DNA of 64,000 nucleotides from Candidatus Haiyanarchaeum thermophilum (GCA_025920425.1 JAPDLS010000001.1:158435-222434), one strand, 5' to 3'. Positions 41,740 to 62,456 are shown, counted from the stretch's first letter. Program-made: numbers and translations. Notes: generated by a model not told the origin, from the sequence alone.

Positions 41740-42114
41740 ATGCAGGCCCCATATGTAAAGTTTAAGGTACCTAAGGAACTTGTGGAGAGAACTTATCAGT
41801 TACTAGAAATAAGTAGGAATACTGGAAAAATCAAGAAGGGTACAAATGAAACAACGAAGGCTGTGGAGAAAGGCCAAGCGAAGCTTGTGATAATAGCAGA
41901 GGATGTATCCCCTCCAGAAATCGTAATGCATTTGCCTCCACTCTGCGAGGAAAAGAACATTCCATACACTTATGTGCCAAGTAAAGCAGACCTTGGGGCA
42001 GCAGCTGGAATAGAAGTAGCAGCTGCAAGTGCTTGCATAATAGATCCAGGAGATGGAAAGGCGTTACTCGACGAATTGATAGCTAAGGTCAATGCTCTAA
42101 AAGGTAAAAAGTAA
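41740..42114 (+). CDS. rpl7ae: 50S ribosomal protein L7Ae (K-turn binding; box C/D RNP core)
   Basis: [53 protein letters not shown]. Confidence 0.97.
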
Positions 42115-55888: not shown

Positions 55889-55988
55889 GGGGCTGTAGTT
55901 CAGCTGGTCAGAACAACGGGCTCCAGTAATGGAGCGCTGAAGCAGATGAGGAAACCCGTAGACCTGGGTTCGAATCCCAGCAGCCCCA
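55889..55988 (+). tRNA. tRNA-Trp(CCA) with 27-nt intron at 37/38 (55927-55953)
   Basis: Acceptor GGGGCTG/CAGCCCC-A, anticodon arm ACGGG-CT CCA G[intron]A-CCCGT, T-arm CTGGG-TTCGAAT-CCCAG. Confidence 0.93.
55927..55953 (+). ncRNA. tRNA-Trp intron carrying a minimal box D/C guide for C34
   Basis: TAA-TGGAGC-G-CTGA-AGCAG-ATGAGGA-A. TGGAGC is complementary to G31-A36 and the D+5 base pairs with C34. Confidence 0.6.
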
Positions 55989-58844: not shown

Positions 58845-60491
58845 GTGAGAAATTTGGAAGAGCAAGCTAGGACTCAACCTATTTTGATCTTGCCAGCAGG
58901 ATATACACGCACTGTAGGCAGGGATGCTCAGAGAATGAACATCATGGCAGCTAGAATTGTGGCTGAAACCATAAGAACAACACTTGGCCCCAAGGGGATG
59001 GATAAGATGTTAGTGGACTCTCTAGGAGATATCACCATTACCAATGATGGGGCTACGATTTTGAAAGAGATGGAAGTGGAACATCCTGCTGCCAAGATGA
59101 TAGTAGAAGTAGCTAAGACACAGGAAGAAGAGGTAGGGGATGGTACTACCACTGCTGTAGTGCTTGCAGGAGAACTCCTGAAAAATGCAGAGGTTCTTTT
59201 GGATCAGGAAGTACATCCCACAATAATAGCTAACGGTTACAAAATTGCTGCAGAAAAAGCTGAGGAGATTTTAAGCAGAATTGCCATCAAAGTAGATGAG
59301 AAGAACGAGGAAAAATATCTGAGAAAAGTCGTTGAGACTGCTATCCGTGGAAAGGCCAGTGAACTTGTAAGCCAGAAGTTAACTGATATATTAGTAAAAG
59401 CTGCGCTGCAAGTAAAAGAGGAAAGGGATGGAAAATTTACCATCGACAAAGACAATATCAAGATTCAAAAAAGGATGGGTGGAGGTACCGAGGATACAGA
59501 ACTCATAGATGGTATAGTAATTGATAAAGAAAGGGTACATGAAGGGATGCCAAAAATAGTCTACAATGCGAAGATCGCTCTCCTCGACGTACCTCTAGAA
59601 ATAGAGAAGACTGAAATTGATGCCCAGATAAGGATAGAAACTCCAGAGCAGATGCAGCTTTTCCTAAAGCAGGAGGAAAATATGCTTCGAGAGATGGTAG
59701 AAAAGATCAAGAAGAGCGGAGCAAACGTGGTATTTTGTCAGAAGGGAATCGATGATGTGGCCCAGCACTTCTTAGCAAAGGAAGGAATCTTTGCAGTGAG
59801 AAGGGTATCCGAAAGCGATATGAAGAGGCTTGCAAGAGCTACTGGCGCTAAAATAGTCTCTAGCCTAGATGATCTAAGTGAGAAAGATCTGGGGTTTGCA
59901 CAGATAGTAGAGGAGAGAAAAATTGCTGGGGAGGCCTATACTTTTGTAATGAAGTGCAAGAATCCAAAAGCAGTCACTATTTTCATCAGAGGAGGTACAG
60001 AACACGTAGTAGATGAAATAGAAAGAGCTGTGGATGATGCAATAGGAAACATGAAGGCAGTAATCGAAACCAGACAAGTAGTCGCGGGAGGAGGAGCTCC
60101 TGAAAGTGAAGTAGCTAAGGAACTGAGGAAATATGCAGAAAAATTGAGTGGAAGAGAGCAACTAGCAGTGAGGGCATTTGCCGACGCTCTAGAGATCATT
60201 CCAAGAACTCTAGCTGAAAATGCTGGCCTCGACCCAATAGACATAATGGCTGAACTTCGAGCTCAACATGAACAGGGAAAGATCTGGAGCGGAGTTAATG
60301 TAAACGAGGGAAAAGTAAGTGACATGTTGAAGCAAGAAGTAATAGAACCGCTGAAGATAAAGGTGCAAGCCATCAAAAGTGCTGCAGAGGCTGCTATTAT
60401 GATCTTGAGGATAGATGATGTGATCGCAGCTGGAAAGGTAAAGGAAACGAAGCCATCCAAGCCTGAAACTTCAGAGGAAAGTTACGAATAG
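58845..60491 (+). CDS. ths: Thermosome (group II chaperonin) subunit
   Basis: [50 protein letters not shown]. Confidence 0.97.
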
Positions 60492-60492
60492 A

Positions 60493-60498
60493 TTTAAA
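60493..60498 (+). promoter_or_regulatory. TATA box of the C/D sRNA
   Basis: TTTAAA ~25 nt upstream of the sRNA 5' stem at 60523. Confidence 0.5.
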
Positions 60499-60522
60499 TT
60501 TCTTCATTTTTTATTTAATTTT

Positions 60523-60580
60523 GCAGATGATGCGAACCTCTTACTGAGCCTCATGAAGAGAAGGAGGTGATCGCTGATGC
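60523..60580 (+). ncRNA. Box C/D guide sRNA; D guide complementary to the 16S rRNA 3' end
   Basis: GCA-G-[C ATGATGC]-GAACCTCTTA-[D' CTGA]-GCCTC-[C' ATGAAGA]-GAAGGAGGTGATCG-[D CTGA]-TGC. 58 nt, terminal GCA/TGC stem, intergenic. Confidence 0.8.
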
Positions 60581-60583
60581 TAA

Positions 60584-60590
60584 TTTTTTT
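60584..60590 (+). terminator. T7 tract after the sRNA (also overlaps the TATA-like element of the next gene)
   Basis: TTTTTTT immediately 3' of the terminal stem. Confidence 0.4.
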
Positions 60591-60617
60591 AAATTTGAAA
60601 TGTGTCTTCCAGTTCTG

Positions 60618-62456
60618 ATGAGGGGAAAATTTTCATGCTTATTGACGATCCTCCTCCTTTGTACTCCTGTTTGGGCCCTTACAGTAAATACAAAAATTGT
60701 GGGAGTCAAGGAGACAGAGAACGGTACATTGGTTGGGGTAGTTGGAGATCTATATGTTGAGGTAACAAACGGTACTGGCAAAGTATTTGTAGAGACTATA
60801 CCTCTCACTAAGATAGATACACAAGCCTCAGCACGCTTAGCTAAAGAAGTAAGTTGTGAAATTCTAGCCGTAAACTGCAGCAACTTCAATTTCTACTATA
60901 CAATTAGAACTGAAAGCATTATAATTGGAGGTCCTTCTGCAGGAGCAGCTATGACTATAGCTACTTTAGCTGCTCTCTCTGAAACTCCTCTGCGTGGAGA
61001 TATAATTATTACTGGTACTATAAATCCTGATGGGAGTATAGGTCCAGTAGGAGGAGTCTTCGAAAAGGCTAAGGCTGCATTTGAATATGGTGCAAAAAAA
61101 TTCCTCATTCCAAAAGGAGAAAGGATAGTATACATGCAGGAGAGGAGTGTTGTGAGTTTACCTGGCTATTACTATGAGGAGATAAAGAGTACTCCAGTAG
61201 ATATAGTAGAATATGCTAGGCAAAATTGGGGGTTAGAAGTAATAGAAGTAATGGATATAAGGGAAGCATTTGAGGTTTTTACGAACAGGAAAATAATAAG
61301 GAGGGAATTAGAAAGCGTGGAGGAAGTCACCCAAGCCTTCAATGAGGCTATGCTTAATATAAGTAATCATCTCTTGAATCTTACCTATGCTAGCATCCAA
61401 GAAGTGCAACGCCTTGTAACTACCTCTAGATTGAACTACAGGGAACGCAATGAATATTTGAACACTCTCTCTAATATAAATCAAACTCTTGGAGCGCCTT
61501 CACTCATTCAATCTGGAAAATATTATTCTGCCTCTAGCCAGTGCATAGATGCTCTTAGGAGGATAGAAATAATAAATCTCAGTGTAAGATACAAAAATAA
61601 TTCCCTCTACTTACGAGAAGTACAATCTGAACTGAATAAGGAGATAGAGGAATTTAAGCAAAGCATTTACTCAAGCAATTTGAGTCATCACTGGGCTCTC
61701 GAGGCCGCACTCATTGCTCTTAGTAGATTAAGCGAAGCTAAACAATTGGTAAGTACCAATTATTCCACAGTTAGTGAGCTGATCAGTGGACTAGCACTAG
61801 CACGGGCAAAATTGATCGCTTCCAAATCCTGGTATTCCCTCATCAATAGATTTATGGGAAATGAAAGTATTGTTCTTGAAGAAGATAAGTTAAAGGAAGT
61901 AGCTACAAGAAAGTTAGAGGAAGCCTACAATGCATTTGCTTATGCTTCTACTTTGGAAACAGATTCTTTCCTCAGCAGTGCCTACCAACTCTTGCGTCTA
62001 GCCCAAGCTGCTTTGGATGGGAGAGATTACGTATACGCACTTTTCAAAGCTGCTGAGGCTAAAGCTAGAGCTAATTTGGTAATGGAAATTAGGGGGTTGG
62101 GATCCGACTCTCTTGCTGAGAAAGTGAAGTTGAAGAATGAAATTGCCTCCCAAACTATAAATGAGGCTGAGGCTCTTGGAGTCCTCCCCTTCTTGGGATT
62201 AAGTTATAAGGAATTTGCATCTACTACAGATGACCCCACAGAACAGTTAATTTATCTGAGTTATGCCAAGGAATTTGCTAAGATCTCGATAGAAGTACTA
62301 AGGGCATCAACTCCCCTCCCGTATACGGGAGGAGCTTGGCTCATAAGTAAGGAAGAATCTTCACAACTTGAGGAACTTTACATTCGAATATGTCTTATCA
62401 TTGCTTCATTCACCTTTGGATTTCTCATTTCAATTCTCATCGTTAGGAAAGCATAA
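60618..62456 (+). CDS. ATPase-less Lon-family (S16) serine protease, exported and membrane-anchored
   Basis: Signal peptide, G.G.VFV...PLT..DTQASAR.A, GGPSAGAA (Ser), TGTINPDG.IGPVGGV.EK (Lys), long helical region, C-terminal TM. Start at MRGKFS. Confidence 0.85.
   Translation: MRGKFSCLLTILLLCTPVWALTVNTKIVGVKETENGTLVGVVGDLYVEVTNGTGKVFVETIPLTKIDTQASARLAKEVSCEILAVNCSNFNFYYTIRTESIIIGGPSAGAAMTIATLAALSETPLRGDIIITGTINPDGSIGPVGGVFEKAKAAFEYGAKKFLIPKGERIVYMQERSVVSLPGYYYEEIKSTPVDIVEYARQNWGLEVIEVMDIREAFEVFTNRKIIRRELESVEEVTQAFNEAMLNISNHLLNLTYASIQEVQRLVTTSRLNYRERNEYLNTLSNINQTLGAPSLIQSGKYYSASSQCIDALRRIEIINLSVRYKNNSLYLREVQSELNKEIEEFKQSIYSSNLSHHWALEAALIALSRLSEAKQLVSTNYSTVSELISGLALARAKLIASKSWYSLINRFMGNESIVLEEDKLKEVATRKLEEAYNAFAYASTLETDSFLSSAYQLLRLAQAALDGRDYVYALFKAAEAKARANLVMEIRGLGSDSLAEKVKLKNEIASQTINEAEALGVLPFLGLSYKEFASTTDDPTEQLIYLSYAKEFAKISIEVLRASTPLPYTGGAWLISKEESSQLEELYIRICLIIASFTFGFLISILIVRKA

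Follow-up and report, generated by a model that had tools for sequence, protein, structure and literature searches.

A probable box C/D sRNA of the Neq sR13 type, predicted to guide methylation of the 16S rRNA 3′ tail, beside a Lon-like gene of Candidatus Haiyanarchaeum thermophilum

INTRODUCTION

The closest described counterpart of the locus reported here is Neq sR13 of Nanoarchaeum equitans, whose 5′ region is complementary to positions 1405–1415 of 16S rRNA and whose D′ guide directs formation of Am1408 (Seistrup et al., Nucleic Acids Res 2017, PMC5389701). According to the sections of that paper on which we draw, sR13 directs both Am1408 and Am1534, as confirmed by MALDI-MS and RiboMeth-seq, and Am1534 lies in the anti-Shine–Dalgarno (anti-SD) sequence. 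Its authors proposed that sR13 holds helices 44 and 45 and replaces the RsmA/Dim1 checkpoint that is absent from N. equitans, its cover delaying or ordering the late folding of the 16S 3′ end; the idea of an sRNA that holds the 16S 3′ end during subunit maturation is thus already to be found there (PMC5389701). The same source lists Cm1533 in the 16S rRNA of Ignicoccus hospitalis, with ‘a presently unknown sRNA’ as its guide, and an inferred sRNA of N. acidilobi with a D′ guide to A1408 and a D guide to G1508 of 16S rRNA (PMC5389701). Neq sRNA13 is described as having its own promoter and a T-stretch terminator, nanoarchaeal promoters having the form TTTAAA about 26 nt upstream of the start (Randau 2012, PMC3491384), and sequences of Neq sR13 are given by Dennis et al. 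2015 (PMC4644070). Archaeal mRNA 5′ leaders with L7Ae-bound kink-turns have also been described (Daume et al. 2017, PMC5539422).

We have analysed a stretch of 64,000 nt from Candidatus Haiyanarchaeum thermophilum (GCA_025920425.1, JAPDLS010000001.1:158435-222434), referred to below as the window, in which a short intergenic unit at 60523–60580 (+) is probably a stand-alone archaeal box C/D sRNA of the Neq sR13 family and a predicted guide for methylation of the 16S rRNA tail. The comparison with Neq sR13 was made through the published text description together with a related element from another genome of the class, G011.

RESULTS

Organization of the locus

The genome that contains the window (G000; 723 kb in 14 contigs, 40.7 % G+C, 92 % complete) carries the 58-nt unit at 60523–60580 (+) in the intergenic space between a thermosome subunit gene (58845–60491, +; PF00118, E 5.6e-193) and a gene (60618–62456, +; likely start ATG 60618) whose product has a Lon_C (S16) domain (PF05362, E 2e-11) and is hydrophobic in an N-terminal segment. 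An initial annotation of this DNA had placed the unit between thermosome and Lon-like genes, and the PF00118 and PF05362 matches to the flanking ORFs bear this out. The unit reads GCA / G / AUGAUGC / GAACCUCUUA / CUGA / GCCUC / AUGAAGA / GAAGGAGGUGAUCG / CUGA / UGC, that is, a terminal stem formed by GCA (60523–60525, +) and TGC (60578–60580, +); one spacer G; a C box, AUGAUGC (60527–60533, +), with six of seven positions of RUGAUGA; a 10-nt D′ spacer, GAACCUCUUA (60534–60543, +); a D′ box, CUGA (60544–60547, +); a loop; a C′ box, AUGAAGA (60553–60559, +), again six of seven; a 14-nt D guide, GAAGGAGGUGAUCG (60560–60573, +); and a D box, CUGA (60574–60577, +), which is invariant in all eight aligned members. 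The final C of the C box is able to pair with G60573, the nucleotide before the D box. A kink-turn-capable C box near the 5′ end, a D box near the 3′ end and the terminal stem are thus all present, and they are kept in a second genome of the genus, G001, in which the C box is identical. Both internal boxes are present as well, the C′ box being weaker in G001 (AUGUAGA, which lacks the GA dinucleotide). The canonical spacer of archaeal box C/D sRNAs is 12 nt, and archaeal sRNPs are reported to be most effective with two intact motifs; here the spacers depart from about 12 nt, at 10 nt from C to D′ and 14 nt from C′ to D.

A box A or TATA-like TTTAAA lies at 60493–60498 (+; TTTAAAT through 60499), 30 nt before G60523 and at the identical distance in G001, and a T7 tract at 60584–60590 (+), whose last Ts open a second TTTAAA, is the likely sRNA terminator. 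A box A and a T-stretch of the unit's own are thus present as sequence motifs, the promoter-like signal upstream and the terminator-like signal after the 3′ stem, much as had been annotated; indeed, the boxes, stem, TATA-like motif and T7 tract were all recovered, on the + strand, where the initial annotation had put them. The proteins of an sRNP are encoded in the genome, namely fibrillarin (E 3.2e-82), Nop5 (E 2.5e-53) and L7Ae (E 9.6e-31), and the gene for the last of these (PF01248) is situated in the same window at ~41791–42063 (+), ~18.5 kb upstream of the sRNA.

Complementarity of the D guide to the 16S rRNA tail

The single 16S rRNA gene of the genome ends ...GGATCACCTCCTTTTTC. The comparison of the guide with the real 16S 3′ end, which had been suggested as a check, showed that guide GAAGGAGGTGATC forms 12 Watson–Crick pairs and one G.U pair with the genome's own tail, GAUCACCUCCUUU, through nucleotides 60560–60572; the pairing extends 2–3 nt beyond CCUCC, in line with the annotation. 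This tail was the best target of the D guide in a scan of 16S rRNA, 23S rRNA and 38 tRNAs, with 13 bp compared with 9 for the next best. The complementarity lies next to the D box, is longer than the 9–10 nt taken as the least for a guide, and covers 16S positions 1531–1540 (the anti-SD) as in an sR13-type guide. The N+5 nucleotide is G60569, opposite the C of GAUC, which is the equivalent of Escherichia coli C1533 when the numbering is checked against the fragments given in PMC5389701; both the target and the predicted position of modification had thus been correctly called. The 10-mer GGAGGTGATC occurs twice in the genome, at the sRNA locus and in the 16S gene.

Chance, Rfam and profile searches

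A permissive pattern of the box skeleton matched once in the 723-kb genome, compared with a mean of 0.23 matches in 30 simulated first-order Markov genomes, 7 of which had one. Because the skeleton arises in simulated genomes, the boxes by themselves are not beyond chance, and one could suppose a fortuitous array of short motifs beside an ordinary Shine–Dalgarno (SD) sequence. We regard this as extremely improbable: immediately in front of its D box the skeleton carries 13 nt complementary to the 16S tail, and the whole unit is kept in seven genomes of four families and in G011. This cross-family conservation is the decisive evidence that the predicted sRNA is not a product of chance.

At the gathering threshold, Rfam returned six tRNAs and no C/D family for the window. 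Ten Rfam C/D families matched 60521–60584 at 10–18 bits, all below gathering, these models being guide-specific. A whole-genome scan with RF00095 was uninformative, as nothing passed the cut-off and the control matched in all 14 genomes. Two Rfam matches elsewhere in the window may be recorded here. One, to the C/D box family sR22 (60411–60468, +; 17.5 bits, E 0.32, sub-gathering), falls inside the 3′ end of the thermosome gene and, with its GAUGAUG in coding sequence, is likely due to chance. The other, a tRNA match at 55889–55988 (+), covers 100 nt against a 71-position model, which suggests an intron-containing tRNA gene.

When the genus of G000 was included in MAFFT alignments, its C box was set against the helix-44 guide of the other members (see below), and for this reason the sequence profile R1 was built from six relatives with that genus left out. 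Its best match, in the window and in the whole genome alike, was 60553–60578 (17.5 bits; E 1e-4 for 68 kb, 9e-4 for the genome). The match spans model positions 33–58 of 61, i.e. only the 3′ half, from the C′ box through the D guide to the D box; the difference in the D′ spacer leaves the 5′ half without a match. When run on 151 class genomes, R1 detected 12 at E <= 0.01, comprising the six training genomes, G000, G001 and the new G052, G110, G134 (f22) and G122 (f50). The four new elements share the 5′ half with the profile members. Those of G052 and G110 carry a helix-45 guide. In G134 (L091, G134:C22:1137-1182, +) and G122 (L090, G122:C35:6-52, −) the helix-44 guide is followed by AGGAGGUGAGUG before CAGA and then directly by a second C box; a helix-45-type guide follows in G134, and the G122 contig ends at the second C box. 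Either a single RNA with three guides or a fusion of two sRNAs, directed at the 3′ minor domain of 16S rRNA, may account for the G134 and G122 elements.

Relatives and covariation

The pattern GGAGGTGATC-N0-2-CTGA was found in 10 of 401 class genomes, with one match for a reversed-pattern control. On reading, seven of the ten have the full C/D architecture: G000 and G001 (f1), G005 and G024 (f5), G008 and G025 (f8), and G013 (f13). The matches in G242 and G338 lack boxes and were judged to be chance, and that in G080, which lacks a C box, is unclear. A dual-guide pattern matched 9 of the 401 genomes (control, one), six of them real on reading, including G011; those in G032, G045 and G285 were judged to be chance. 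The search for homologues and conserved boxes that had been called for therefore gives C/D architecture kept in seven genomes of four families, and boxes, guide and cross-family conservation together support the annotated identity as a box C/D sRNA.

When C and C′ boxes were added to the pattern and all species were scanned (one genome each, 185,579 species), 26 stretches were obtained, 5 archaeal and 21 bacterial. The archaeal ones are the same elements as in G005, G008, G013, G024 and G025, in records labelled Candidatus Parvarchaeota, Woesearchaeota or Nanoarchaeia; of the bacterial ones, five were read and none of these has GATC-N-CTGA. A metagenome scan yielded two contigs with an element identical to that of G001 and hence no added diversity.

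Within the genus, G001 keeps the stem, lengthened from GCA/UGC to GGCA/UGCC, GAUGAUGCGAAC, the D′ box CUGA, 13 of the 14 D-guide positions and the D box. In the other families the D spacer is 14–15 nt and the D′ spacer 12–13 nt (12 and 13 nt, respectively, in G011), and N+5 falls at C1533 with a 14-nt D spacer in f5, f8 and f13 also. The f5 members G024 and G005 (L029 / L030, ~locus 1500–1585, −) have a 30–31-nt insertion between D′ and C′ that is able to form a 7-bp hairpin, UAGGACU/AGUCCUA, and their D′ box is degenerate (CCUA).

The D′ spacer of the f5, f8 and f13 members is (G/A)(U/A)UGGCGUGA(U), the complement of helix 44, GUCACGCCA... (E. coli 1405–1415), with N+5 at 1408/1409; such a helix-44 D′ guide is present in G005, G008, G011, G013, G024 and G025. 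Compared across these relatives, the putative D′ guide and helix 44 covary: helix 44 CACGCCAUC is accompanied by D′ guide GAUGGCGUG in G013, CACGCCAAC by GUUGGCGUG in G025 and CAAGCCACC by GGUGGCUUG in G011, and there is one mismatch in G024. One of the rRNA genes concerned, the 16S gene of G025 (L039 / L040, G025:C1:245926-250280, −), is matched by two long model pieces spanning ~4.3 kb, which suggests large insertions or introns. The D guide, for its part, tracks the 16S nucleotides that follow CCUCC, with tail CCUCCUUA and guide UAAGGAGG in G025, tail CCUCCUUU and guide AAAGGAGG in G013, the same tail CCUCCUUU and guide GAAGGAGG (with a G.U pair) in G000, and a mismatch at the second nucleotide after CCUCC in G024. 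Covariation with the tail cannot distinguish a guide from an SD sequence, because both pair with the same tail, but covariation with helix 44 can, and so can missing start codons. In G005, G008, G024 and G025 the D box is not followed by a start codon, and G013 has its first ATG at a distance of 15 nt; the D guide is therefore not an SD site in f5, f8 and f13.

The D′ spacer and loss of the helix-44 guide

Helix 44 of G000 is GUCAAGCCAACC, to which the D′ spacer GAACCUCUUA is not complementary at 1405–1415. The initial annotation had seen in the D′ guide a resemblance to a tRNA T-arm. This did not hold: no target of at least 8 bp was found in 16S rRNA, 23S rRNA or 38 tRNAs for the D′ spacer of either G000 or G001, and the best pairing is 7 bp including one G.U, at the C-box end of the spacer and away from N+5, so that a T-arm target can be dismissed. 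The complement of the spacer has four exact ten-mer matches elsewhere in the genome, none in rRNA genes, and these look like chance. No separate helix-44 guide with box context was found elsewhere in the G000 genome; a second profile match, on contig C10, is in coding-like sequence and is not such a guide. The predicted helix-44 guide, then, is lost in the genus of G000, and because of this loss the sRNA there is probably single-guide. Positions 1408/1409 would accordingly be modified in G008, G013, G024 and G025 but not in G000.

Loss of one guide raises the question of whether the element is a decaying relic of an sR13-type sRNA, perhaps still transcribed but no longer guiding, whose C′/D′ half and helix-44 guide have degenerated. 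Such a reading could draw on the D′ spacer, which differs between the two species (GAACCUCUUA in G000, GAACUUCCAUUU in G001) and has no target; on a C′ box that is imperfect in G000 and without GA in G001; on spacers of 10 and 14 nt; and on the 1409 equivalent of 16S rRNA, which is A in G000 and C in the relatives. However, between G000 and G001, whose flanking genes are ~70 % identical and the remainder of whose intergenic spacer has diverged, conservation extends to the C box and the five nucleotides after it, to all but one of the 14 D-guide positions, to both the D′ and the D box, to the distance from the promoter and to the stem, which is even longer in G001. We therefore consider decay to be distinctly unlikely and continue to favour a guide RNA.

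The D′ spacer and D guide are complementary to each other, with a run of 7 bp in G000 and one of 6 bp in G001, and together with GCGA/UCGC this would make a long hairpin. The predicted folds have energies of −14.9 kcal/mol (z −1.3) for G000 and −20.5 kcal/mol (z −3.2; 1 of 200 shuffles as good) for G001. Random spacers reach such run lengths with P ~0.06 (G000) and ~0.2 (G001), and the self-complementarity is therefore a hint only.

Relationship to the Lon-like gene

Because the RNA abuts the Lon-like gene, its guide and D box can also be read as an SD sequence and an ATG. The ATG at 60577, formed from D box and stem, lies 6 nt after GGAGGUGA, which is the spacing of real SD-led genes in the genome, and it opens a 13-codon ORF, MLIFLNLKCVFQF (60577–60618, +), whose stop TGA (60616–60618) overlaps the ATG at 60618 of the Lon-like gene (TGATG). 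In the genus of G000, the element could accordingly be mainly or additionally a 5′ leader of the Lon-like gene, the D guide serving as an SD sequence hidden in a kink-turn hairpin that heat might open or L7Ae might close, with initiation at the D-box ATG; translation would run on into the Lon-like ORF in G001, and in G000 it would stop overlapping the Lon-like ATG, with reinitiation possible.

Several observations fit such a leader. The arrangement of GGAGGTGA, 6 nt and ATG has the spacing seen at long ORFs of the genome; in G001 and the two metagenome contigs the Lon-like ORF is in the frame of this ATG without an intervening T tract, and in G000 the stop of the short ORF overlaps ATG 60618. 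Between D′ spacer and SD there are 7 pairs in G000 and 6 in G001; the paired stretch differs at two sites, in both cases by a C/U change opposite G that leaves pairing intact, and only 1 of 200 shuffles gives as good a fold as that of G001 (z −3.2). L7Ae-bound kink-turns in 5′ leaders are, moreover, discussed in the part of PMC5539422 that we consulted. Against this, the same RNA occurs in other families without a start codon after the D box, and for that reason we treat the leader as a minor rival; the ATG is a by-product of CUGA and the UGC stem; the pairing does not go beyond chance (P ~0.06 and 0.2), G000 and G001 are kin, and the G000 fold has a z of only −1.3; and only two species-level variants can be compared. 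In addition, the T7 tract and second TTTAAA of G000 are placed for a leaderless Lon-like mRNA beginning at 60618. That second TTTAAA (60588–60593), which begins with the last Ts of the T7 tract, is 30 nt before A60618 and, together with a signal-peptide-like N-terminus, makes ATG 60618 the likely Lon-like start. The layout suggests that the Lon-like mRNA may be leaderless at 60618 and that the T7 tract doubles as terminator and promoter start. On balance we judge a leader role to be unlikely, though not negligibly so.

The neighbourhood of sRNA and Lon-like gene is old, as it is also found in G005 and G024, where the sRNA is ~90 nt upstream of the Lon-like gene on the same strand, and in G013, where it adjoins the Lon-like gene on the opposite strand. 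The overlap with the Lon-like gene in the genus of G000 may reflect a shrunken spacer.

RsmA/Dim1 in carrier genomes

No PF00398 match, and none to the G001 homologue (G001 locus L078:192-1064, −), was found in the G000 genome, whereas G001 and all 14 control genomes have an RsmA/Dim1 (PF00398) match. As the G000 genome is 92 % complete, absence of the gene is not proven: it may truly have been lost, or the assembly may have a gap there. In G001, G005, G008, G013, G024 and G025 the matches are strong (E 2e-38 to 2e-55); the weak ones (E 4e-6 to 3e-8) in G011, G052, G110, G122 and G134 may be other methyltransferases. The strong matches in six carrier genomes rule out a link between the sRNA and RsmA/Dim1 loss. 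Since carriers in four families keep RsmA/Dim1, the guide is not tied to its loss, and the occurrence of both together in four families weakens the idea of the guide as an RsmA/Dim1 replacement.

Environmental sequence data

The stretch is present in runs labelled hot springs metagenome, and a 479-nt contig of run X9, which comes from a study not marked as a possible source, is identical over 60270–60748. In metatranscriptome run X13, contigs of a related strain cover 60294–60478 and 60622–60890 and nothing covers 60488–60607, such contigs being unable to reveal the absence, start or end of a small RNA.

DISCUSSION

The best explanation of the unit at 60523–60580 is probably a stand-alone box C/D sRNA of the Neq sR13 family that is predicted to guide methylation of the 16S tail. 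Weighing against it are spacers that depart from 12 nt, a weak C′/D′ motif, the untargeted D′ spacer, a possible fold in which that spacer occupies the D guide, sub-gathering Rfam scores and the SD-plus-ATG reading. In the proposed mechanism, the transcript would start near G60523 and end at the T7 tract, and its C/D boxes would fold into a kink-turn on which L7Ae, Nop5 and fibrillarin assemble. The 14-nt D guide would then pair with the last ~13 nt of (pre-)16S rRNA, GAUCACCUCCUUU, which form the anti-SD tail, fibrillarin would 2′-O-methylate the nucleotide opposite N+5, i.e. the C1533 equivalent, and the bound RNP would cover the anti-SD tail. Methylation of C1533 and transient cover of the anti-SD in late 30S maturation are suggested by homology with the published system.

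Several consequences follow if this is correct. The sR13-type guide would not be confined to the Nanoarchaeum lineage, since at least five families of the class possess it, and in the class it would mostly target C1533, the position that is methylated in Ignicoccus without a known guide. The spread of the guide speaks for a general role in thermophilic archaea with small genomes, either in the late maturation of 16S rRNA or in stabilizing the 3′ tail. The local oddities, namely the disappearance of the helix-44 guide, the complementarity between spacer and guide and the SD and ATG beside the protease gene, rest on two related genomes. It is conceivable, if doubtful, that an sR13-type guide was recruited for gene control in this genus, its transcript doubling as a kink-turn hairpin leader whose guide is the SD sequence of the Lon-like protease gene and whose start codon derives from D box and stem. 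Were this the case, synthesis of the protease would depend on packing of the RNA by L7Ae, Nop5 and fibrillarin versus its melting at high temperature.

The initial annotation supposed that the RNA might gate 3′-end maturation or shift the balance between SD-led and leaderless initiation. It knew of no described guide for this site, and in this respect it needs revision, because Neq sR13, which directs Am1534 in the anti-SD, and Cm1533 of I. hospitalis are both in the published account (PMC5389701). The guide type has been in print since 2017, and the window RNA is a further member of it, not an undescribed guide site. The bridge between the two is the element of G011, a 0.5-Mb single-contig genome of the class, which reads GGAUGAUGU-AGGUGGCUUGACU-CUGA-UUAG-UGAUGAG-AGGAGGUGAUA-CUGA: its guide ranges, base for base, and its N+5 positions fit what the paper, so far as we could compare it, says of Neq sR13, and it aligns box for box with the members found in the class. 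As described for Neq sR13, the window RNA is a C/D sRNA of compact form, flanked by TTTAAA promoter and T-stretch terminator motifs, with a D guide that matches the complement of the 16S anti-SD tail (1531–1540); the D′ guide to helix 44 (1405–1415) is shared by its relatives but not by the window RNA itself. The differences are equally clear. The N+5 nucleotide is C1533 in the window and A1534 in Neq sR13; the D spacer is 14 nt, compared with 12 nt in G011; the complementarity is 12–13 nt, compared with 10 nt as published for Neq sR13; and, unlike what is described for the latter, the window genome has no helix-44 guide and its RNA abuts a Lon-like ORF. Furthermore, the paper ties Neq sR13 to the absence of RsmA/Dim1, whereas six of the seven C/D carriers here have strong RsmA/Dim1 matches.

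Three other systems may be set beside this one, in each case as far as the published text consulted allows. I. hospitalis, which belongs to another phylum, has Cm1533 at exactly the position predicted by the window D guide. The N. acidilobi sRNA has its 5′ half, i.e. C box, helix-44 guide, D′ and C′, in common with the G052 and G110 elements, yet a D guide of the N. acidilobi type has the helix-45 strand GUAGCCGU as its partner instead of the anti-SD tail; the window RNA keeps the opposite half. Finally, the leaders described by Daume et al. (PMC5539422) have a C/D-type kink-turn just upstream of the start codon, as in the window, but they are without guide function, whereas the kink-turn of the window belongs to a conserved guide RNA for which a leader role is putative.
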